A stretch of 32,000 bases of DNA, from contig JAJRVL010000004.1 in assembly GCA_024277355.1 (NCBI GenBank), forward strand, positions 390,001 through 422,000, read 5' to 3'. Numbering within the stretch: position 1 is the first letter of the stretch; each line of letters starts with the position of its first letter. Source of the DNA: an archaeon (GTDB lineage Archaea; Iainarchaeota; Iainarchaeia; Iainarchaeales; 1-14-0-10-31-34). Of the stretch, positions 1 to 30,703 are shown piece after piece. Both the position numbers and the translations under genes were made by a program. A model generated the notes under the pieces. The model ran no database searches, had not been told where the DNA came from, and was given only the letters and a program-made list of their open reading frames with translations.

Positions 1-2168
1 ATATAGTTATTAATGCAGATAATGGACAAGCAACAGATACAACCGCAATAACTATAACTGCAACAACAGACACTACGCCTCCAATAGTAAATATTACTTC
101 TCCTTTAGATGGACAAACTGTTTCAGGAACAATTAATTTAACTGCTGATGCATCAGATACAAGCGGAATAACAAAAGTAGAATTTTATATTGACACAACA
201 TTAATTTCAACTGACACAACTTCTCCTTACGAATATTCCTGGAATTCAACAACTGTTTCAAATGCAAGCCACATAATCAAAGCAATAGCAATAGATCCAG
301 CAGGAAACACAGCAGAAAACACAATTACAATTCAAGTTGACAATTTAGCAGTTCCTGATACTCCAACAGGATTAACTTCATTACCAGGACCTAATATAGG
401 AGAATTAACAATAAATTGGAATGCTGTTTTAGAAGCAACATATTATTCTGTATTAATTTCTCCTGATTTAGAAGTAAATTACTATCTAGCAACCGATCCC
501 ACTTATTCTCAAAATAATTATCTTTTATCAGTTTCACAGGAAAATCCAGAAAGTTTTCTAATTTATTTTAAAGTTATGGCCTGTAATTTAACAGGATGCA
601 GTTTAGAAACTACCTCACAATATGACTACCTTAAATTAGGAGCAAAAACAAACGGACCTTATACTGGATTAATAAACGAACCAATTACATTAACTGCTTC
701 TCCTTTATTTGCAGCTGGAACTCCAAGTTATTCTTGGATTATAGCAGGAACATCAAACTGCACTCCAATAACTTCAACTGAACAAAACCCCATAATAACC
801 TGCTTAAATGAAGGAACTTCAATTGCAAATTTAACTATTACAGCAGACAACGGAACTGCAACAAACACAGCAGATATTACTATTACTTCCACAGCAGACA
901 CTACTAATCCAACAATAAATATTACAAACCCATCTAATGGACAGACTGTTTTAGGAACAGTAAATATAACTGCTAATGCTTCAGACACAAGCGGAATAAA
1001 ACACATAGAATTTATTATTGATGATTCATCAAAAGCAATAGATAGTTCTTCTCCTTATGAATATTCATGGGACACAAGAACAGAAGCAAACGGAAGCCAT
1101 ACAATTAAAACAAGAACAGAAGACGCAGCAGGAAATACTGCTGAAACAAGTATTACTATAAATATAAATAACGCTTCTTCTGGAATTGAATGCGGAAACG
1201 GAATAATTGAATCAGGAGAAGAATGTGAATTTGATTCAGAATGCAACTACTCCAAAACAAACTGCAATACTTCAAATCAAACTTATGGAACAAGAAGCAT
1301 TACCTGCAGTTCTTGCAGTTGTTCAACAGGAAACTGGAATTATGATTCACCAAACTCAACTTCATACTGCAATAACTGTAATGCATGCGGAGACGGAATA
1401 CAAAACTGCAATGAAACAGCAGAATCATGTCCGGCAGACTTTGGAGGAGAAACAGATAATACGCCTCCTTCAATTCCAACTGGATTAAATGTAATAAAAA
1501 CAACAGAAAACACAATTACATTAGAATGGAATCCAAACACTGAACAGGATTTAAGAAGATACCAAATACTTTATTCAACAACAGCCAATAATTACTCTAA
1601 AACTGAAATTGCATTAAAAACAGAAACAAGTTTGATTTTAACAGGATTAAAACCAGACACAAAATATTATTTTGCAATAACTGCAGTTGACTTAAGTGGA
1701 AATGAAAGTCTTTATTCAAATGAAGTTTCAGCAACAACAAAAAAAGAAACAATAACAACAGTTAAAACTCCTGCAAATTTAACAGCAGAATTAAAAGACG
1801 GAAACATCACATTAAAATGGACTCACACTAACCCAAAACCTTCTCATTATATTATTCAAAGAAAAGGAGAATTCTTTGAAGAAATAACTACAACATCAGA
1901 TAATTCATTTACAGACAAAGAAATCACAAAAGGAAAAACATATGCATATAGAATAGCTGGATTTAAAGACGGAAAAACAAGTTCTTATTCAGAAGAAGTA
2001 GAAGTTAAAGTTCCTGAATGTTCAGAAGAAAAAGACGATTACTGTGATAAAACATGCGAAAATGATCCAGACTGCAATAATGACAATTTACTGCAATGGG
2101 GAATTGGAGCAACAATAGTAGTAATTTCAGCTGCATTAGCATATGTGTTTTTTACATTTAACATTTAG
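1..2168 (+). CDS. Large cell-surface protein, 5' end outside the window (Ig-like/PKD-like modules, Cys-rich CGNG module, FN3 modules, C-terminal TM anchor)
   Basis: The frame starting at base 3 is open up to TAG 2166-2168; the ORF track reports it only from internal ATG 576. Two ~95-aa modules recur ('SPYEYSW...GNTAE'). A Cys-rich stretch reads 'IECGNGIIESGEECE'. An FN3-like stretch reads 'PPSIPTGLNV...LEWNPN...YYFAITAVDLSGNES'. The hydrophobic tail is 'WGIGATIVVISAALAYVFFTF'. Confidence 0.8.
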   Translation, partial: IVINADNGQATDTTAITITATTDTTPPIVNITSPLDGQTVSGTINLTADASDTSGITKVEFYIDTTLISTDTTSPYEYSWNSTTVSNASHIIKAIAIDPAGNTAENTITIQVDNLAVPDTPTGLTSLPGPNIGELTINWNAVLEATYYSVLISPDLEVNYYLATDPTYSQNNYLLSVSQENPESFLIYFKVMACNLTGCSLETTSQYDYLKLGAKTNGPYTGLINEPITLTASPLFAAGTPSYSWIIAGTSNCTPITSTEQNPIITCLNEGTSIANLTITADNGTATNTADITITSTADTTNPTINITNPSNGQTVLGTVNITANASDTSGIKHIEFIIDDSSKAIDSSSPYEYSWDTRTEANGSHTIKTRTEDAAGNTAETSITININNASSGIECGNGIIESGEECEFDSECNYSKTNCNTSNQTYGTRSITCSSCSCSTGNWNYDSPNSTSYCNNCNACGDGIQNCNETAESCPADFGGETDNTPPSIPTGLNVIKTTENTITLEWNPNTEQDLRRYQILYSTTANNYSKTEIALKTETSLILTGLKPDTKYYFAITAVDLSGNESLYSNEVSATTKKETITTVKTPANLTAELKDGNITLKWTHTNPKPSHYIIQRKGEFFEEITTTSDNSFTDKEITKGKTYAYRIAGFKDGKTSSYSEEVEVKVPECSEEKDDYCDKTCENDPDCNNDNLLQWGIGATIVVISAALAYVFFTFNI
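69..1178 (+). repeat. Internal duplication of an Ig-like module inside the surface-protein gene (period 828 nt = 276 codons)
   Basis: 'gacactacgcctcca...' at 69 matches 'gacactactaatcca...' at 897. Both copies encode DT(T/S)xP-(I/T)-NIT-P-NGQTV-GT-N-TA-ASDTSGI-(K)-EF-ID...SPYEYSW...H-IK...AGNTAE. They are similar but diverged at the nucleotide level. Confidence 0.7.
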
Positions 2169-2179
2169 AAGTGAAAAAA

Positions 2180-2479
2180 ATGGTATGGAATAACTTTAAT
2201 AAAAACAAAATTCCAATAAGATTTACTTTAATGGCATTGACTATTGGGTTTATTGCAGGTTTTTTTTCTTTAATTTATTTAAGCAGTACAGGAAACTTAT
2301 TGCTTGAATTAAATCAAAAACCCTGTTTTAAGTATTCAGGCGAAGAACCTGATGCGTTTTGTGATGAAAAAGGAAGTTTACATGTTTATTTCAAAGGAAA
2401 CAGTGAATTAGATTCAGGATGGTATACAACTAAATCAAATAAATGCATTCCATGCAGTGAAATAAAAGGAGGGAGTTAA
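2180..2479 (+). CDS. Small membrane-anchored hypothetical protein with 4 Cys
   Basis: Contains an N-terminal TM helix (FTLMALTIGFIAGFFSLIYL). 'AAGTGA' lies 5 nt upstream of ATG 2180, the same SD-like context as top6B. The ORF track uses GTG 2171 instead. Confidence 0.5.
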   Translation: MVWNNFNKNKIPIRFTLMALTIGFIAGFFSLIYLSSTGNLLLELNQKPCFKYSGEEPDAFCDEKGSLHVYFKGNSELDSGWYTTKSNKCIPCSEIKGGS

Positions 2480-2480
2480 A

Positions 2481-2711
2481 ATGATGGATATAAAACAAAA
2501 AAATCTTGCATTAATTTTTGGAATGGTTTTAATTGCTTCACTAAGTGTTATGTTTTTGTTTAATGATGGTGTTGAAGGAAAAGCAATTCAGGAATTTAAT
2601 TCAGCAAAAGAAAAAAATACTTATTGCGAAGAATTATGCGATGAAGAAATGCAGAAAGATAATCCTGAATATTCTGACTGGATTTCATGTCATGAAAAAT
2701 GTTTCAAGTAA
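2481..2711 (+). CDS. Small membrane-anchored hypothetical protein with twin CX3C motifs
   Basis: GGAGGG lies upstream of ATG 2481. It has an N-terminal TM helix (LALIFGMVLIASLSVMFLF) and the motifs 'CEELC' and 'CHEKC'. Confidence 0.5.
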   Translation: MMDIKQKNLALIFGMVLIASLSVMFLFNDGVEGKAIQEFNSAKEKNTYCEELCDEEMQKDNPEYSDWISCHEKCFK

Positions 2712-2740
2712 TAAAAAAAAAAAATAAAAAGAGAAATTAA
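2712..2740 (-). terminator. Oligo-T tract after the last gene of the minus-strand superoperon
   Basis: The minus strand reads TTTCTCTTTTTATTTTTTTTTTTTATTA directly after the prefoldin stop. Archaeal termination typically uses T-runs. Confidence 0.35.
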
Positions 2741-3079
2741 TTATTTTTTCTCTTCTTTTTCTTTTGGTTCTAATTTGCTTTTTAGTTTATTCATTTTGTC
2801 TATTGAAAGGTCTTCTTGTTTCTGAACAGTTTTGAGTCTTAAATCTATTGCTTCAATCTGTGTTTCTAAATCTTTTTTTACGTCTTTAACAGGAGAAAGA
2901 ACAAGAATGTTTCCTACTGCCTTATAGACTTTTTCTTCTTTTGTTTTTGAAACTTCTTCTAAAGCTTCTTTTAACAGTTTATCCTGAAACTGCAACTGTT
3001 GTTTTTGTGAATACAACTGCATTAACTGATTTCTTTGTCTTTCAAAATCAATTCTGTCCTGATTAATTTGTTCTGCCAT
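2741..3079 (-). CDS. pfdB: Prefoldin beta subunit
   Basis: Architecture is coiled coil, beta hairpin ('KAVGNILVLSPV'), coiled coil, in 112 aa. GGAGGT SD lies upstream. It occupies the canonical position at the end of the exosome superoperon. Confidence 0.85.
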   Translation of the reverse strand: MAEQINQDRIDFERQRNQLMQLYSQKQQLQFQDKLLKEALEEVSKTKEEKVYKAVGNILVLSPVKDVKKDLETQIEAIDLRLKTVQKQEDLSIDKMNKLKSKLEPKEKEEKK

Positions 3080-3326
3080 GGGATTTACCTCCTAAATCAT
3101 TAAATAAAATTAAAGGTTTTAAAACTGAATTAAAAGAAGCTCTTAATGCAGTTTTATCTTTTGCTTTAATATTAATTAAAAAAAAATTATTTTTAATTGT
3201 AATGCTTGTAATACTTCTTGCTTTTGAATTCATTACATCTGAAGCAATTGCTTGCAATGCAAGTTCTGCTTTTTCTTTTGATTCAAACTTAATGCTTGCA
3301 TCAAAAAAATAATCATATTCTTCCAT
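3063..3326 (-). CDS. pcc1: KEOPS subunit Pcc1 (CTAG/Pcc1 family)
   Basis: 87 aa containing 'INIKAKDKTALRASFNSVLKPL', which matches the Pcc1 signature (A-D--ALRa--NS-L). It overlaps pfdB by 17 nt. Confidence 0.7.
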   Translation of the reverse strand: MEEYDYFFDASIKFESKEKAELALQAIASDVMNSKARSITSITIKNNFFLINIKAKDKTALRASFNSVLKPLILFNDLGGKSHGRTN

Positions 3327-3338
3327 TTAAAACTCCAA

Positions 3339-3506
3339 TTACACTGCATTAAGTTTCCTTGAAACCGGTTGAGGTAATTTGCTTATTATTTTATATGCAC
3401 AAGAAGGACATCTGAAAACTCCTTTTGGAATTTCATCGAATTTTTCTCCGCATTTCTGGCATTGATATTTTCCTTCTTTTTTTGCTTCAATTCCTTCTTT
3501 TTTCAT
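3339..3506 (-). CDS. rpoP: DNA-directed RNA polymerase subunit P (Rpo12/RPABC4), 55 aa
   Basis: Not in the ORF track because it is under 60 aa. My translation is MKKEGIEAKKEGKYQCQKCGEKFDEIPKGVFRCPSCAYKIISKLPQPVSRKLNAV. It has a CxxC...CxxC zinc ribbon. Its ATG overlaps the L37ae TGA (ATGA). The position matches the canonical superoperon. Confidence 0.8.
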   Translation of the reverse strand: MKKEGIEAKKEGKYQCQKCGEKFDEIPKGVFRCPSCAYKIISKLPQPVSRKLNAV

Positions 3507-3937
3507 TTCTTTTCCTCCTTAGAATTTTGCTCTTCCTTGTTTTTCTTATCAATTCCTAAAACACTTTTGGCTTTTTTAATTAAATTTTTTTTTTCTGTTT
3601 TTTTTTCTTCTTTTTTTGCTGGTTTTGCTTTTATTTTAATTTCAGTTTCTTCCTGTTCTTCTTCTTTTATTTCAGAAGAAAACTTTTTCTGTGAAACCAT
3701 TTTTTTAATTAAAGAACCAGTCATTGTTTCAGGAACATATGCTCCTCCTGCAAATTCTTTTTTGCATTTAGAACAAAAATAAATTCCTGCTGCTCTTCTT
3801 TTTAAGGTTCCTAAATTACATTCAGGGCATTTCTTTTTCTTTTTCTGCTGTGCTTCAACTTTAATTACCCTTTTTCTTATTCCTACTCCGTATCTTGAGC
3901 CAAATCTTCCTGTTGAATAAACTTTTTTTGTAGTCAT
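3503..3937 (-). CDS. rpl37ae: Ribosomal protein L37ae (eL43) with a ~55-aa K/E-rich C-terminal extension
   Basis: 'GRFGSRYGVGIRKR', 'CPECN...RRAAGIYFCSKCKKEFAGGAY'; AGGTG SD upstream. The tail is low-complexity ('EIKEEEQEETEIKIKAKPAKKEEKK...'). Confidence 0.9.
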   Translation of the reverse strand: MTTKKVYSTGRFGSRYGVGIRKRVIKVEAQQKKKKKCPECNLGTLKRRAAGIYFCSKCKKEFAGGAYVPETMTGSLIKKMVSQKKFSSEIKEEEQEETEIKIKAKPAKKEEKKTEKKNLIKKAKSVLGIDKKNKEEQNSKEEKK

Positions 3938-4732: not shown

Positions 4733-5599
4733 TTATTGCACCTCTGCTTCTGCTTTAGATAATTCTTTATTATCTTTCAATTCTTTTTTATCTTCTTTTT
4801 TTTCTGTTTTAGTTTCTTTTGCTGATTCAACTGATTTTTCTTTTGTTTCTGTTTTTGTTTTCTTTTCTTCTTTTTCTTCAAGCTTAAATTGTTCTTTTAA
4901 GGCATTGATTTGTAATTGTTTTATTTTTTCTATTCCTTTAACTGCAACTTCATATGCTTCTTCCCATTCTTTTTTTGAGAATAAACCATCCATTTGCAGT
5001 AAAACAATTTCTTTTGAATTTGACATCATTGCAATAGGCATATCAACTGCATCTGGTGCATCTTCTTCTTCTTTATTTAAATCTAAAACAATTTTTCCGT
5101 CAATTCTTCCAACTGCAACTGAAGTAACTAAATCTTTCATTGGAATTCCTGCATCAGCTAAAGCAACTGAAGCAGCCGTTAAAGCTGCAGCTCTTGAACC
5201 TGCATTGCTGTCTAAAATCTGCGCCCAAATTTCTATTTGAGTGTTAGGGTATTTTTCCAAGAAAATTGATTTTTCAAGTGCTTCCCCGCAAACTTTTGAT
5301 ATTTCAATATCTCTTCTTCCAGGACGAGGATTTTTTCTGTCTGGAACAGAAAAAGCAGCCATTCTGTAAGTGAACTTAACTATTGCTTTAAATGGATTAG
5401 CAATATGTTTTGGTAAAGCTTCTCTTGGACCCTGAACTGAAACTAAAACTTTATTTTGTCCCCATTCAAGATAACAGGAACCTTTAGCATTTTTTAGTAC
5501 TCCTGCTTTAATTGTTATTGGTCTTGATTCATCAACTGCTCTTCCATCTAAACGCAGTCCTTTTTTATTTACATAAATTTTTTTTTCTTCTTTAGTCAT
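4733..5599 (-). CDS. rrp41: Exosome complex exonuclease Rrp41 (RNase PH) with a K/E-rich C-terminal tail
   Basis: 'LRLDGRAVDESRPI', 'GSCYLEWGQNKVLVSVQGPRE', 'RPGRRDIEISKV'; AGGTGA SD upstream. The last ~50 aa are low-complexity K/E. Confidence 0.93.
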   Translation of the reverse strand: MTKEEKKIYVNKKGLRLDGRAVDESRPITIKAGVLKNAKGSCYLEWGQNKVLVSVQGPREALPKHIANPFKAIVKFTYRMAAFSVPDRKNPRPGRRDIEISKVCGEALEKSIFLEKYPNTQIEIWAQILDSNAGSRAAALTAASVALADAGIPMKDLVTSVAVGRIDGKIVLDLNKEEEDAPDAVDMPIAMMSNSKEIVLLQMDGLFSKKEWEEAYEVAVKGIEKIKQLQINALKEQFKLEEKEEKKTKTETKEKSVESAKETKTEKKEDKKELKDNKELSKAEAEVQ

Positions 5600-12938: not shown

Positions 12939-13220
12939 TTATTCTTTAACTTCTTTTTTAATTTCTTTAATTTCTTCTTTAATTTCTTGTTTTGCTTTTT
13001 CTTCTTCAAGTTTTATTTCTTTTTTTGGTTCAGTTTTTGTTTCCGCTGTTTTTTGTTCGGACTTTTTTTCCAAAAAAGGTTGTTTTGCTTCTCTTAACAG
13101 AATTTTTGCTTCTGTTTTGTCTATTCCAACTTCACTTAAATTAGATAATATTTCATCGTCTGAAACACTTAATGAAAGTAATTTTTTAATGCTTGAAATT
13201 AAAGTTTCTTTATCTGCCAT
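12939..13220 (-). CDS. N-terminal part of the same coiled-coil protein (small helical domain + K/E linker), ended by an in-frame TAA
   Basis: 'MADKETLISSIKKLLSLSVSDDEILSNLSEVGIDKTEAKILLREAKQ' followed by a K/E-rich linker. ATG 13220 is preferred over GTG 13229. The stop at 12939-12941 is in frame with the downstream ORF. Confidence 0.6.
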   Translation of the reverse strand: MADKETLISSIKKLLSLSVSDDEILSNLSEVGIDKTEAKILLREAKQPFLEKKSEQKTAETKTEPKKEIKLEEEKAKQEIKEEIKEIKKEVKE

Positions 13221-19604: not shown

Positions 19605-20309
19605 CTAAAGGTTTCTTATCCCTACTTCATCAAAAAAAGGCTCTAAGATTTTCTTTAATTCCATTAATTTTTCTTTTGCATAAGGTTCTTTATTTTTAAA
19701 TTCAGGATCTAATAAAGGAACTTCATTTCTAAACTGCTGTAAAAAAAAAGCTTTGCTTCCTTTTAACCATTCCCCAATTTTTTTTGCATCTTCCCCAGAA
19801 AAAAATTCAGGAATTATTGTAGTACGGAATTCATAATTTAAACCTGAATTTTTAATTAATTCAATACTTTCTTTTATTTTATTTAAATCAACTTTTACTT
19901 CACATATTTCAGAATATTTTTCTAATGAAGTTTTTATATCCATTGCAATAAAATCAACTAATTTTTTTTCAATTAATTCTTTCAGCATTTCAGGATTAGT
20001 TCCATTTGAATCTAATTTAACTAAAAAACCTTTTTCTTTAATTTTTTTACAAAACTCCGGTAAATCTTTATGCAAAGTAGGTTCTCCGCCTGTAATGCAG
20101 ACTCCTTCCAGCCATTTTTTCTTTGAATCCAAAAAATAAAAAAAATCTTTTTCAGGAAGTTCAGGAGCATCAGAAACAGAAACTAAAGCAGGATTCTGAC
20201 AAAAACCGCAGCGGAAATTACAGCCTTCAGTAAAAACCGTACACGCAACTTTTTCTGGAAAATCAATTAAAGTTGTTTTTTGCAGTCCTTTAATAATCAT
20301 AAAAATCAC
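19605..20309 (-). CDS. nrdG: Anaerobic ribonucleotide reductase activating protein (radical SAM)
   Basis: 'GCNFRCGFCQNP' CX3CX2C cluster and 'ITGGEPTL'. It sits immediately downstream of nrdD. ATG 20300 is an alternative start. Confidence 0.88.
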   Translation of the reverse strand: MIFMIIKGLQKTTLIDFPEKVACTVFTEGCNFRCGFCQNPALVSVSDAPELPEKDFFYFLDSKKKWLEGVCITGGEPTLHKDLPEFCKKIKEKGFLVKLDSNGTNPEMLKELIEKKLVDFIAMDIKTSLEKYSEICEVKVDLNKIKESIELIKNSGLNYEFRTTIIPEFFSGEDAKKIGEWLKGSKAFFLQQFRNEVPLLDPEFKNKEPYAKEKLMELKKILEPFFDEVGIRNL

Positions 20310-20353
20310 ATAAAAAAAATTAATTAAAAAAAAATAAAAAAAAGAAAAAAGAA

Positions 20354-20521
20354 TTAACAGATATTTGTTTCTGTTTTAAATGAATTACACATAGTTTTTT
20401 CTTCATTGTAAGCTAATCTGTCTTTAAATTCTTCTTTTTTTCCTATATTCCAATTCTGTACTGGCCTGTAATAACCAACAATTCTGGAATAAGTTTCGCA
20501 TTGCGAATCACATTTAGTCAT
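20354..20521 (-). CDS. nrdD: NrdD C-terminal glycyl-radical segment (55 aa), in frame with the pieces upstream
   Basis: Not in the ORF track. My translation is MTKCDSQCETYSRIVGYYRPVQNWNIGKKEEFKDRLAYNEEKTMCNSFKTETNIC. 'SRIVGYYRPV..WN.GK..EF.DR' is the class III RNR glycyl-radical motif. GGAGG lies 8 nt upstream of the ATG. Confidence 0.8.
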   Translation of the reverse strand: MTKCDSQCETYSRIVGYYRPVQNWNIGKKEEFKDRLAYNEEKTMCNSFKTETNIC

Positions 20522-20524
20522 TTT

Positions 20525-20800
20525 TTATGCCTCCTTTATTTCTATTTTAATTTTTTCTTTATTTGAATTTACTTTAGATTTATCTTCTGCATTATTACTA
20601 ACAGCTGAAACAGTCATAGGACACTGGAAGTGTTCTCCTTTAACATAACCATGAACCGGACAAACACTAAAAGTCGGAGTAATTGAATAATATGGAAGCC
20701 TTGTATTTTCTGCGATTTTTTTTACTAAAGCTTTGCATGTTTTTCCATCACTTATTTTTTCTCCTAAAAAAGTATGGAAAATTGTTCCGCCGGTATACAA
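20525..20800 (-). CDS. nrdD: NrdD middle segment; the open frame continues upstream to 20821
   Basis: 'YTGGTIFHTFLGE', 'LPYYSITPTFSVCPVHGYVKGEHFQCP'. The ORF track's TTG start has no SD. The segment is bounded by in-frame TAA codons on both sides. Confidence 0.8.
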   Translation of the reverse strand: MYTGGTIFHTFLGEKISDGKTCKALVKKIAENTRLPYYSITPTFSVCPVHGYVKGEHFQCPMTVSAVSNNAEDKSKVNSNKEKIKIEIKEA

Positions 20801-20821
20801 GTGTTGTATTTCATTCTGGTG

Positions 20822-22570
20822 TTATAATGCTTCAATTGCATCTTCTGTATGGCTTACAGGTAATTGAGTTGAATTTGTAAGATAAGGGGTTTCTTCTCCT
20901 GCAGTATAAATTTCAGGATGAGCTTTTTTATCCAACATTGCCAGCCTATATGAAGCTGATTCAGCAGGAGTTGCCTCCAAGTTATATAAATTCTGTGTTT
21001 CTTTCTGGAATTCAAAACATTTATTTCTCATAAAAGTTAATGTTTCAATTGCAAATTGTTTTCCTTCTTCTGAAGAAATATCTTTTCCTAAAAAATTAAC
21101 ACAAGCTTCATTCATTCCGCACAAACCAATAGTTGAAAAATGATTGTTAAAAGTTCCAAGATAAGCTTTAGTATAAGGCATTAAACCATTTTCCAAATTT
21201 TTGTTTATGATTTTTCTTTTAATTTCTAATGAAGTTTTAGCAAAATTCATGTAAGTTTCTATTGCATTAAAGAATTCTTCTTTTGTTTTAGATTCAAAAG
21301 CAATACGATTTACATTAATTGTTACTACTCCAATTGAACCAGTTGCATCCCCAGGACCCCACATTCCTCCAGGCCTGTTAATCAACTGACTGGTATCCAT
21401 GTTTAACCTGCAGCACATTGCCCGAATACTTTTAGGATCTAAATCTGAACCAACATAATTCTGGAAATAAGGAATCCCATATTTTGCAGTAACAGTAAAT
21501 AATAAATCTGCATTATCTGAATTCCAATTAAAAGTTTTAGTTAAATTGTATGTAGGAATAGGAAAAGTAAAAACTCTTCCGTTTGCATCTCCTTCCTGCA
21601 TTACTTCAAGAAAAGCTTTGTTAATCATGTCCATTTCTTTTTGCAAATCCCCGTAAGTAAATTCCTGTTCTTTTCCGCCAACAATTCCTTTATCTTTTTC
21701 TAAATCTTCAGGAACAGTCCAGTCAAAAGTTAAATTAGAAAATGGATACTGTGACCCCCAACGACTTGGAATATTTAAAGAATAAACTAATTCCTGCATG
21801 CATTGTTTTACCTGCCTGTAAGTCATATTATCTGCTCTGACAAAAGGAGCTAATAAAGTGTCAACAGAAGAAAATGCTTGTGCGCCTGCAAACTCCATTT
21901 GCAAGCAACCAATAAAATTCACCATTTGATGAACAACAACATCCATGTGTTTTGCTGGTTTTGCATCAACTTTGTTTGCTACTCCTCCAAAACCTTTAAC
22001 CAATAAGTCTTTCAAAGACCATCCTGCACAATAACCAATAAATCCATGGCTTAAGTCATGAATATGCATATAACCTTTTTTGTAGGCTTCACTTACTTCT
22101 TTTGGATAAATTTGTGTTAAAGCATAACTTGCAATAACTTTTCCTGCTGTGTGAAGAAGTAATCCTGAAAAAGAATAAGCTTCATTTGAATTTTCTTTTA
22201 CTCTCCAGTCATCCTGTTTAAGGTATTCATTTATTGTTTCTTCTACATCAATAAAAGTATCTTTCATTTCTCTTATTTTTGCATGCTGTTCTCTGTACAA
22301 AATATATGCTTTAGCTGTTTTTGCATGACCTTCTTCAACTAAAACTTTTTCAATTATATCCTGCATTTGTTCAACTGAAGGAATATCAGTTCCGGAATCA
22401 AATTTAATTCTTAAAACAAATTCAACTTTGTCTGCAAGTTTTTTTGCTGCTTCAAGGTTTGAGCCTCCAACACTTTTTGCAGCATTAAAAATAGCCTGAA
22501 CTATTTTTTCTTTGTCAAAAGACACTATTTTATTGTTTCTTTTTCTTATGTTCTTTAAATATTCAGCCAT
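20822..22570 (-). CDS. nrdD: Anaerobic ribonucleoside-triphosphate reductase (class III), main body, truncated by an in-frame TAA
   Basis: N-terminal ATP-cone 'KRNNKIVSFDKEKIVQAI', 'HIHDLS', 'MCCRLN', 'LEATPAES', 'TNSTQLPV'. GAGGGG SD lies upstream of ATG 22570, which is preferred over the ORF track's GTG 22594. Confidence 0.92.
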   Translation of the reverse strand: MAEYLKNIRKRNNKIVSFDKEKIVQAIFNAAKSVGGSNLEAAKKLADKVEFVLRIKFDSGTDIPSVEQMQDIIEKVLVEEGHAKTAKAYILYREQHAKIREMKDTFIDVEETINEYLKQDDWRVKENSNEAYSFSGLLLHTAGKVIASYALTQIYPKEVSEAYKKGYMHIHDLSHGFIGYCAGWSLKDLLVKGFGGVANKVDAKPAKHMDVVVHQMVNFIGCLQMEFAGAQAFSSVDTLLAPFVRADNMTYRQVKQCMQELVYSLNIPSRWGSQYPFSNLTFDWTVPEDLEKDKGIVGGKEQEFTYGDLQKEMDMINKAFLEVMQEGDANGRVFTFPIPTYNLTKTFNWNSDNADLLFTVTAKYGIPYFQNYVGSDLDPKSIRAMCCRLNMDTSQLINRPGGMWGPGDATGSIGVVTINVNRIAFESKTKEEFFNAIETYMNFAKTSLEIKRKIINKNLENGLMPYTKAYLGTFNNHFSTIGLCGMNEACVNFLGKDISSEEGKQFAIETLTFMRNKCFEFQKETQNLYNLEATPAESASYRLAMLDKKAHPEIYTAGEETPYLTNSTQLPVSHTEDAIEAL

Positions 22571-28985: not shown

Positions 28986-28994
28986 GTGAAAAAA

Positions 28995-29492
28995 ATGACT
29001 GAAATACAAAAAGTTCAAAAAGAAGTTTCAGCTGAAGCATTAGCAAAAGACTTTAAAGAGCACTCAGTAGCAGAATTCTTTAAAAAAAACAAGCAAATGT
29101 TAGGTTTAAGCGGAAAAATAAGAACTTTAACAACAATAATCCACGAATATGTTACAAACAGTTTAGATGCCTGTGAATCAGCAAACATTCTTCCTGAAAT
29201 AGAAATTAAAATACAGGAATTAGGAACTGAATATTATGAAATTACAATAAAAGATAATGGACCTGGATTAACAAAAGATACAGTAGGAAAAGCTTTAGGA
29301 CAATTACTAGCAGGAACAAAATTCCATAGAATGATTCAAAGCAGAGGACAGCAGGGAATTGGAGCAGCAGGAGCAACAATGTATTCCCAGACAACAACAG
29401 GAAAACCAGTTAAAGTAATTTCAGGAACAGGAAAAGGAAAAGCATTTTCATTAGAATTAACTATTGACCCAAAAAAAATCAGCCAAAAATAG
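28995..29492 (+). CDS. top6B: DNA topoisomerase VI subunit B, N-terminal GHKL ATPase part (frame 0, ends at a TAG created by a frameshift)
   Basis: 'SVAEFFKKN', Bergerat motifs 'EYVTNSLDA', 'DNGPGL', 'GQQGIGAAG'. AAGTGA lies 5 nt upstream of ATG 28995; the ORF track uses GTG 28986. Confidence 0.9.
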
Positions 29493-30703
29493 AAAACTTT
29501 AAAGAAATAGAAAAACCATTTAAAGGATTAGCAATACAGGCAAAAGTAAAAGACGTTTTATTCAGGATTTCAGAACAAGGTGCATTAGAATACATCAGAA
29601 GAACAGCAATAGCTAATCCTCATGTACAAATAAGTTTTATTGACCCAACCGGACAAAAAACATTATTTGAAAGAAGCTCAAAAAAAATTCCAGCTAAAGC
29701 AAAAGAAATAAAACCTCATCCAAAAGGAGTAACAGTAGACGAATTAGTTACTTTAGCAAAATATTCTGATGCAAGAAAAGTAGGGTCATTCCTAAAAAAT
29801 TCTTTTGACAGAATGGGAGACAAAGCAATACAAGAAATAACAAAAATGGTTTCATTTGACATGAATATGGATCCAAAAAGACTTGAATGGAATGACTCAG
29901 AAGAAATCATCAAGGCATTTAAGCATATTAATTTTATTGCACCAACAACAGACGGATTAAGTCCAATTGGAGACGACCAAATTGAAACTTCACTTAAATC
30001 AATTGTTCAGCCAGAATTCTTAAAAGTAATTACAAGAAAACCACAAGTTTACAGCGGAGGATTTCCATTCCAAGTAGAAGTAGCAGTAGCTTTTGGAGGA
30101 AACGCAGGAAGAAGCAACTCAAATGGAAACGGAGAAAATCAAAAAAGAATGGAAGTAATGCGTTTTGCAAACAAAGCTCCTTTATTATTTGACGGGGGAG
30201 GATGTGCAATAACTAAAGCAGTGCAAACAATTGAATGGAAAAGATACGGCATACAAAATATTGATGAAGCACCATTAACTGTTTTTGTAAATATTATTTC
30301 AGTTCATATTCCTTATACTTCAGCAGGAAAACAAGCTATTTCAGATGAAGCAGAAGTATTAGAAGAAATAAGATTAGCTTTAATGGATTCAGGAAGAAAA
30401 ATTTCAAGATTTATTATAGGAAAAAAAAGAGAAAAAGAAAAACAAGCAAAAAGAAAAATGTATATGAAATATGCGATTGAAGTAGCTTATGCAATAGGCG
30501 AATTAACTAAAAAAAACAAAGAAGAAATAGAAAAAAAATTATTAAACATTGTATTAAAAAGACTTAAATTAGAAGAACAAGAAGACAAAAAAGAATTAAG
30601 CGATGAACAAATAGAAAAAGAAATGAAAAAAGAAACAAAAAAACAAGACAAAAAAGAAGAAAAAATTAAAGGAAAAATTAAAGGATTAAAAAAAGTTAAA
30701 TGA
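29477..30703 (+). CDS. top6B: DNA topoisomerase VI subunit B, transducer/C-terminal part (-1 frame relative to the N-terminal part), with a long K/E tail
   Basis: The -1 frame is open from the A8 run through 30703. It encodes '[20 protein letters not shown]', 'IKPHPKGV', '[22 protein letters not shown]', '[12 protein letters not shown]', '[12 protein letters not shown]'. The ORF track begins only at ATG 29813. Confidence 0.88.

Follow-up and report, generated by a model that had tools for sequence, protein, structure and literature searches.

Glycyl-radical enzymes are irreversibly inactivated by oxygen, which breaks the chain at the radical glycine, and how their activases reach a glycine buried in the barrel is still debated. 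To our knowledge, all characterised members of NrdD, the anaerobic or class III ribonucleotide reductase (RNR), carry the barrel and the glycyl-radical domain on one polypeptide. In the NrdD enzymes of phage T4, Escherichia coli and Thermotoga maritima (PDB 1H7A, 4COI, 4U3E), that chain runs from an ATP-cone through a barrel with the finger-loop cysteine(s) and a zinc-ribbon to an RxxGY loop, and NrdG is the activase. The zinc site reads CxxxHx6CxxC in T. maritima NrdD and CxxCx14CxxC in NrdD of T4 and E. coli (PMC4493059), and the finger loop falls into MGCR and MCCR classes, the latter tied to thiol-based reduction (PMC9669993). Radical domains that exist as free, spare-part proteins have been validated only for pyruvate formate-lyase (PFL; PMC8683613; PMC13450708). 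A 2026 review knows them from formate lyases only (PMC13450708), and a 2021 study of YfiD raised their existence for other members of the glycyl-radical enzyme family as speculation only (PMC8683613). Here we describe an nrdD locus in a 32,000-nucleotide (nt) stretch of an iainarchaeal genome (GenBank assembly GCA_024277355.1, contig JAJRVL010000004.1, positions 390,001 to 422,000), called the window throughout, in which the radical glycine appears to be encoded by a gene of its own.

The locus is very likely a naturally split class III RNR, organised as an operon of large subunit, small subunit and nrdG. The large gene codes for the ATP-cone, the catalytic barrel and zinc-ribbon ligands 1-3; from the small gene come zinc ligand 4 (Cys4), the SRIVGY loop that includes Gly16, and the C-terminal helix. 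Two TAA codons interrupt the reading frame (20822-20824 and 20525-20527, hereafter the first and second TAA). The second is the natural end of the large gene, and the first has nothing to do with the split, being most likely an error or a very recent nonsense mutation.

A first-pass annotation, made by reading the window without database searches, had reported a single minus-strand frame of 739 codons from ATG 22570 to TAA 20354-20356, free of frameshifts and with the two TAA codons as its only internal stops, and translation confirms this. Conserved class III blocks do lie on both sides of each stop, as it had also proposed, and the three pieces are collinear on a single NrdD profile in both Pfam and NCBIfam. 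The first (582 amino acids, aa) contains the ATP-cone and covers positions 1-457 of PF13597 and 3-576 of NF006126 (872 bits against a cut-off of 548); the second (98 aa) covers 460-526 and 578-663, and the third (55 aa) 526-562 and 646-683, respectively. The small gene begins 3 nt past the TAA of the large gene. The GGAGG motif 8 nt upstream of its ATG at 20521 stands where it had been placed, and GGAGG or AGGTG motifs precede many other genes of the window in comparable geometry. Likewise, nrdG is intact as described, with a TIGR02495 (NrdG2) score of 220 bits against a cut-off of 131, and lies 45 nt downstream of the small gene.

Compared with its relatives, the second TAA is an ordinary stop at a conserved gene boundary inside the zinc-ribbon. 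Twelve of the 120 best protein matches cover 87-92% of the conceptual protein (69-86% identity, 670-715 aa), and these end soon after an invariant GEHFxCP, with a short unalignable tail and without the glycyl-radical tail; unsplit relatives run on past that point as CPxCGxxTEVYSRIVGY. The contigs of the split homologues hold an independently called gene of 50-55 aa with an NRDD (PF13597) match, followed by nrdG. One such locus, L001, is syntenic with the window (MCM, SPP, nrdD, small gene, nrdG, metG); L002 and L003 have the same succession of large nrdD, small gene and nrdG, and in L004 the start of the small gene is visible before the contig ends. The two genes meet in an ATGA overlap in L001, across a 10-nt gap in L002 and across a 1-nt gap in L004, and in these three loci the small gene follows GGAGGTG, GAGGTGA or AGGAGG in a frame other than that of the large gene.

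The arrangement recurs well beyond these nearest relatives. Among 80 nrdD loci fetched from GTDB species representatives and classified by script, 56 are fused, 18 are split at the same point and 6 are unclassifiable (about 74 classifiable loci). All 18 split loci belong to DPANN-type archaea, and three further metagenome loci are split alike. Junction statistics were compiled for 22 split loci, comprising 21 relatives and the window (drawn from the 18 GTDB loci, L001-L004 and the window). The distance between large and small gene ranges from -28 to +281 nt with all three relative frames (0, +1, +2) represented, several relatives have overlaps of 4 or 8 nt, and in 19 of the 22 the small gene has a frame other than that of the large gene, the window, L042 and L059 being the only in-frame cases. 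A GGAGG, GGAGGTG or GAGGTGA Shine-Dalgarno motif lies 5' of the small gene in about 19 of the 21 split relatives, and nrdG follows on the same strand in 18 of the 18 split loci whose contigs reach far enough. The small genes themselves mostly encode 50-66 aa with the pattern M..C-x3-C-E-V-Y-SRIVGY, each with its own Shine-Dalgarno motif and ATG. No locus combines a fused NrdD with an extra small gene within the fetched flanks. As a separate observation, one metagenome-assembled genome, MEGAHIT-group-0.609, contains two different split nrdD loci (L017 and L059, on JAZDLQ010000028 and JAZDLQ010000070), one with a glutaredoxin-extended small subunit; this could be paralogy or bin contamination.

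Because the small gene of relatives usually lies in another frame, read-through is ruled out as a general mechanism at this junction. More broadly, the variable frames and gaps, the Shine-Dalgarno motifs and the nrdG that follows across the split loci cannot be explained by read-through, by frameshifting or by an artefact of this one assembly. That the 55-aa glycyl-radical domain could be made as a separate polypeptide, offered by the first-pass annotation as a possibility, is thus borne out more strongly than proposed: judged from gene order and start signals, the two-gene architecture is conserved in many DPANN archaea and is not peculiar to the window genome. Its picture of one gene in three equivalent pieces of the same frame does not survive. 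The two TAA codons are unrelated: the boundary at the second recurs in 21 loci and the first in none of the relatives compared. With 3 of 22 split loci in frame, the shared frame of large and small gene in the window is, on these counts, a coincidence, and the three-piece, same-frame aspect is not meaningful. The first TAA is private to this assembly and probably an error or a fresh lesion.

The two products also behave as complementary parts of one protein family. The large subunit P0002 covers positions 4-647 of NF006126 and the small proteins positions 646-683. The ratio of nonsynonymous to synonymous substitution (dN/dS) among the window, L005 and L001 is 0.11-0.19 for the small gene and 0.06-0.12 for codons 1-582 of the large gene; for codons 584-651, after the first TAA, it is 0.04 (window against L005). 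The small gene is a genuine coding sequence under purifying selection.

Stand-alone proteins of this kind are numerous. Searching 1.84 billion cluster representatives by phmmer with the 55-aa protein gave 3,142 matches at E <= 1e-3. Of the best 150, about 126 stand alone, with lengths of 48-150 aa, an initial Met and a median of 11 residues ahead of SRxxGY; only 4 of the same 150 are fragments of fused NrdD. A Cys stands at position -8 in 97 of the 126 stand-alone representatives and in every small subunit of the fetched loci, and a second at -4 in 104 of the 126. The best match, P0125 (4,660 aa, seven matched stretches), is an immunoglobulin-repeat giant protein and was set aside as a false positive. 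NCBIfam has no model for the small protein, which matches only the last ~38 positions of the full-length NrdD models, far under their cut-offs. In a Pfam scan of the 55-aa protein and three relatives (E <= 0.01), PF13597 was the only family matched, to the exclusion of Gly_radical (PF01228) and GrcA. A phage origin was considered and rejected: tblastn against 50,697 phage records gave three weak matches only, two of them in annotated NrdD or class III RNR large-subunit genes and the third in an unannotated record.

Some small subunits are larger. Those of L047, L059 and L077 have 161-166 aa and end in a glutaredoxin-like domain with a PNCxKC motif, and P0141, P0211 and P0268 show a similar C-terminal fusion, with PF00462 just over the cut-off in P0211 and P0268. 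PF00462 is also found in the single-chain NrdD homologues P0022, P0053, P0061 and P0077. In the small subunits, such a fusion would place the radical carrier and its likely reductant on one small protein. Since the MCCR type of finger loop is tied to thiol reduction (PMC9669993), these glutaredoxin domains fit a thiol-based reaction.

The split falls within the metal site itself. The zinc motif of the DPANN family, C-x2-H-x9-C-P-x-C, aligns with that of T. maritima NrdD, and the break lies between ligands 3 and 4, so that C637, H640 and C650 belong to the large subunit and C4 to the small. Small proteins begin as M-(1-10 residues)-C, with the Cys exactly 8 residues before the Ser of SRIVGY, which is the place of ligand 4 in fused enzymes. 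Eight fused relatives (L019, L033, L034, L039, L046, L049, L067 and L081) have a loop of 5-25 aa after CP and then continue as CGKxCEVYSRIVGY. Because several fused relatives carry this insertion, a path is suggested in which a loop was inserted first, and a stop, a Shine-Dalgarno motif and a start then arose within it. When the catalytic core is placed in a neighbour-joining tree, one clade takes in most split loci, that of the window among them, and three more split lineages (L042; L021; L043 with L063) adjoin fused or loop forms and have retained Thr or Val, the canonical residues, at -4. More than one origin of the split is therefore probable, a provisional conclusion given a tree without support values. 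At the L042 junction (about 4960-4990), C-P-x-C is replaced by C-T-M-E-V-stop-K-M-K-C with an embedded GGAGGTG, the small gene is in the frame of the large gene, and the sister locus L072 is fused. L042 looks like a recent independent split and may show how few changes make the two-gene form.

The coordinates of the window locus are collected in Table 1, in which A1 is a 17-row alignment of NrdD homologues; the finger loop A-M-C-C-R is unchanged across all 17.

Table 1. Features of the split nrdD locus and its activase gene in the window (positions are those of the 32,000-nt stretch).
Feature	Position	Strand	Basis and remarks
nrdD large (catalytic) subunit gene	20525..22570	-	681 codons plus own stop TAA 20525-20527; interrupted by the first TAA in this assembly; Pfam ATP-cone and NRDD, NF006126 3-663; orthologous large subunits have 670-689 aa and share the end point
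ATP-cone, allosteric nucleotide-binding domain, residues 7-97	22280..22552	-	PF03477, E=1e-21
Finger-loop motif A-M-C-C-R, residues 384-388	21407..21421	-	Double-cysteine type, holds the thiyl-radical cysteine; invariant in A1
First TAA, private in-frame stop	20822..20824	-	Glu (GAG/GAA) codon in 42 of 52 relatives
Zinc-ribbon ligands 1-3, C-x2-H-x9-C-P	20621..20662	-	C637 20660-20662, H640 20651-20653, C650 20621-20623; invariant in alignments A1 and A2
Variable low-complexity C-terminal tail of large subunit, 30 aa (MTVSAV...IKEA)	20528..20617	-	Unalignable between relatives; last codons form the Shine-Dalgarno motif of the small gene
Shine-Dalgarno motif GGAGG	20530..20534	-	8 nt upstream of small-gene ATG 20521
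Small glycyl-radical subunit gene, 55 aa plus TAA	20354..20521	-	C4 20510-20512 (zinc ligand 4), C8 20498-20500, S-R-I-V-G-Y 20471-20488 (residues 12-17), G16 20474-20476 (radical glycine)
T-rich intergenic spacer, small gene to nrdG	20310..20353	-	Sequence only; putative oligo-T archaeal terminator and/or promoter
nrdG, radical-SAM activase that would install the glycyl radical	19605..20309	-	TIGR02495

The gene content of the window is archaeal, with an MCM helicase bearing an archaeal winged helix, exosome subunits, RNase P proteins, aIF1A, aIF5A and topoisomerase VI, and its G+C content is ~29%. The closest NrdD homologues are labelled as DPANN lineages (Woesearchaeota, Nanoarchaeota, Aenigmatarchaeota, Pacearchaeota and Parvarchaeota). 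Many DPANN NrdD homologues, P0014, P0017 and P0048 among them, have an NrdR-type zinc-ribbon (PF22811) fused N-terminal to the ATP-cone. In the corresponding region of L002 and L003 (3545-3994), L002 encodes a separate 149-aa NrdR-like protein, comprising zinc-ribbon and ATP-cone, 7 nt upstream of nrdD. A repressor module of bacterial type seems to accompany the archaeal enzyme, either fused to it or as a partner. Inteins occur in this group as well: L004 encodes, at 980-3895, an RtcB ligase with an intein (PF14890) just upstream of its split nrdD, and the NrdD homologues P0007 and P0089 (1,085-1,104 aa) contain PF14890 together with homing-endonuclease domains.

The first TAA is private to this assembly. 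The codon at its position is GAG in 27, GAA in 15, ATG in 4 and another sense codon in 6 of 52 relatives. A degenerate pattern with TRR between the conserved flanks found no stop at this codon in 241 million metagenome records; as controls, an NNN version of the flanks matches 52 of the 84 fetched loci, and the stop version matches the window. The stop cuts off the invariant HQN and YTGGT residues and the zinc ligands. As the first-pass annotation had stated, no plausible start follows it, the first in-frame candidate being TTG 20800, which lacks a Shine-Dalgarno motif and lies downstream of the invariant H-Q-N...Q residues. By these signals, a restart of translation is implausible.

Two further genes of the window are broken in a similarly private manner. 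A K/E-rich coiled-coil gene on the minus strand (13229->11415) has an in-frame TAA at 12939-12941, at a position aligned with Glu of its closest orthologue. The orthologues P0275-P0278 (58-76% identity) are single open reading frames (ORFs) of 575-612 aa that match 96-100% of the joined sequence, and 77 codons without a start follow the TAA, including the invariant block KLHAGE.EVWEKG..NERLDE. On the plus strand, top6B (topoisomerase VI B, 28986-30703) falls into two ORFs, one of 168 aa with the HATPase and one of 296 aa with the transducer part. Because reading goes on seamlessly in the +2 frame (TIDPKK/NQPKIENF), the break is attributed to a one-base deletion in the A8 run at 29471-29478, which is probably a homopolymer consensus error. 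The top6A gene that follows is intact and runs off the window end, and the other ~33 genes of the window are intact. With two private TAA codons and a homopolymer frameshift, the consensus of the window should be treated with caution. Since three lesions fall in core genes and one of them is a classic homopolymer error, consensus errors are the most economical account of the first TAA, followed by a very recent real nonsense mutation, with UAA read-through a minor option. The first TAA would thus most likely be a base-level consensus error or a very recent nonsense mutation, and no functional feature.

It is possible, though on balance unlikely, that nrdD is a genuine pseudogene in this genome, with a real nonsense codon at the first TAA and deoxynucleotides obtained from a host or from another reductase encoded in the genome. 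DPANN archaea are host-dependent and have reduced genomes; the first TAA does remove HQN, YTGGT and the zinc ligands with no Shine-Dalgarno-backed start after it, and two other window genes are broken too. However, amino-acid change is not faster in the window lineage: its unique substitutions number 40, compared with 34 in L005, and after the stop 6 compared with 4. Nothing in these figures points to a prolonged decay of nrdD in this lineage. The dN/dS of 0.04 after the stop and the intactness of the small-subunit gene and nrdG also speak against decay. Topoisomerase VI B is normally indispensable, and since it is among the broken genes, three simultaneous real lesions among about 36 core genes are hard to square with a viable majority genotype.

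Low-level read-through or suppression of UAA in this lineage, possibly as Glu, would allow both the large subunit and the coiled-coil protein to be made despite their TAA codons, and is improbable. In its favour, two conserved genes of the same 32 kb each have a private in-frame TAA, aligned in both cases with Glu in the nearest orthologues and followed by conserved coding sequence without a start codon. The nucleotide after the first TAA is C; TAA followed by C is a leaky context for eRF1-type release factors. Against this, TAA is the regular stop of at least 24 of the 34 window genes, for which reason a reassignment of TAA was rejected. The window has no suppressor tRNA, its only tRNAs being Val-GAC and Ala-GGC, the sequence after either stop forms no significant RNA structure (z = -1.6 and -1.4), and none of the relatives shows a stop at the nrdD site. 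The homopolymer frameshift that co-occurs in top6B suggests plain sequence errors instead.

Even less likely is a rejoining of the two halves into an ordinary single chain during or after translation, by a split intein, programmed frameshifting or bypassing. The small protein does have a Cys a few residues after its Met, and inteins occur in some NrdD homologues of the group (PF14890 in P0007 and P0089). However, the tail of the large subunit is an unconserved, low-complexity segment of about 5 to 45 aa in the different relatives, and only 1-10 residues precede the Cys of the small protein. These lengths are far too short for intein halves (~100 aa for the N-terminal and ~35 aa for the C-terminal part), and no intein family of Pfam is matched. 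Frames and distances at the junction vary freely, each small gene having its own Shine-Dalgarno motif and ATG, which indicates independent initiation and not recoding. A group I intron or intein at the second junction was rejected on like grounds, the insert being ~100 nt of low-complexity coding sequence without intein domains. Least probable of all is that both TAA codons are assembly artefacts of a single-chain nrdD: base-level error signs do exist in the window (the top6B frameshift and the second gene with a private TAA), but the junction at the second TAA is repeated in 21 independent loci of different assemblies and technologies and in >120 protein clusters, usually out of frame and with conserved start signals, so that this account is refuted for the second TAA and for the first merges with the explanation preferred here.

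Several points weigh against that explanation, a split RNR with an unrelated first TAA. That the two proteins would assemble, share a zinc bridge and allow activation in trans is predicted from sequence, and an AlphaFold2 model of the conceptual fused chain, built from the 17-row A1, is poor (mean pLDDT 56, pTM 0.47). The neighbour-joining tree behind the argument for several origins has no support values. No second assembly of the species was found, and all five window proteins found in a 15-billion protein collection, including the 582-aa and 55-aa products, are singleton clusters. The first-pass annotation regarded the first TAA as a nonsense codon or read-through site at a position of sense codons; relatives do have sense codons there, but on the present sequence these two alternatives and a base-call error are not separable. 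Should the first TAA be real, the enzyme of this genome would be dead, whatever the architecture of its relatives.

If the split reading is right, the pair could function as follows. The large and small cistrons would be co-transcribed and translationally coupled, as proposed because of the 3-nt gap here and the 4- or 8-nt overlaps of several relatives, which are typical of coupling. The small protein would then dock on the large subunit, complete the zinc-ribbon and put the glycine loop into the barrel. NrdG would take a hydrogen from Gly16, and the radical would move from there to the finger-loop cysteine of MCCR, as in single-chain NrdD. The likely benefit, which is speculative, would be that the oxygen-labile part approached by the activase is a cheap, exchangeable piece of 55 aa. 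Because oxygen cleaves at the glycine and the activase must extract the glycine loop, a detachable module could make both activation and replacement cheap. A bolder and doubtful version is that of a 'radical cartridge': the free 55-aa protein would be activated by NrdG while off the enzyme and would then dock via the shared zinc site, and after oxygen cleavage at the glycyl radical it would be swapped and the 680-aa subunit reused. If true, a repair logic like that of GrcA would for the first time be known outside the formate lyases, hard-wired into the enzyme architecture.

An RNR with a natively separate radical domain of 50-66 aa would offer a direct experimental handle on oxygen damage and on activase access. 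The split architecture is also widespread, being found in roughly a quarter of sampled DPANN species loci and in >120 protein clusters, and the finding is more general than a first reading of the window alone could show. Annotation pipelines may take these genomes to be devoid of a functional anaerobic RNR, since their large subunits seem truncated and no family model exists for the small genes. The full-text literature searched, outside which most subscription-journal papers fall, yielded no description of a split NrdD, and a conserved two-gene class III RNR with a free glycyl-radical subunit is, within that literature, previously undescribed.

Compared with single-chain NrdD and NrdG, the locus has the same domain order, an adjoining gene for a radical-SAM activase and NF006126 as its best NCBIfam model. 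By sequence it belongs to NrdD: the family profile is matched over its whole length, the MCCR finger loop is present, NrdG is nearby, and the four-ligand zinc site and RxxGY are there, spread over two polypeptides. Unlike the characterised members, it does not hold barrel and glycyl-radical domain on one polypeptide. Here there are two genes, the break lies between zinc ligands 3 and 4 (C-x2-H-x9-C / C), and the radical glycine is on a 55-aa protein. Glycyl-radical-dependent ribonucleotide reduction by the split pair is a prediction.

The analogy with GrcA (YfiD) of E. coli, drawn by the first-pass annotation, holds in part. GrcA and Y06I of phage T4 are likewise small free proteins that consist essentially of a glycyl-radical domain, are presumably activated by the cognate activase, and are put into a barrel without a functional radical domain (PMC8683613). 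However, GrcA serves as backup for a full-length PFL that oxygen has cleaved, and its gene lies elsewhere in the genome, whereas the protein described here is encoded in the operon and would be obligatory; with no radical domain on the large subunit itself, the small protein is an obligate subunit and not a spare copy. The families differ too, as the small protein matches NRDD (PF13597) and neither GrcA nor Gly_radical (IPR011140/PF01228), and it also holds a zinc ligand.

A split RNR chain has a parallel in the class II enzyme NrdJa/NrdJb of Pseudomonas aeruginosa, which, as far as the citing text describes it, is encoded by two consecutive genes with a C-terminal Cys-rich module on the second (Crona et al. 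2015, cited in PMC9669993). That enzyme is cobalamin-dependent and bacterial, is split at another point, and its second piece has no radical cofactor.

Small subunits encoded beside a catalytic one are familiar from other glycyl-radical enzymes, such as the beta and gamma subunits of benzylsuccinate synthase and the gamma subunit of 4-hydroxyphenylacetate decarboxylase, some of which bind metal via Cys. There the large subunit retains the radical glycine, whereas in the split NrdD it is carried by the small one.

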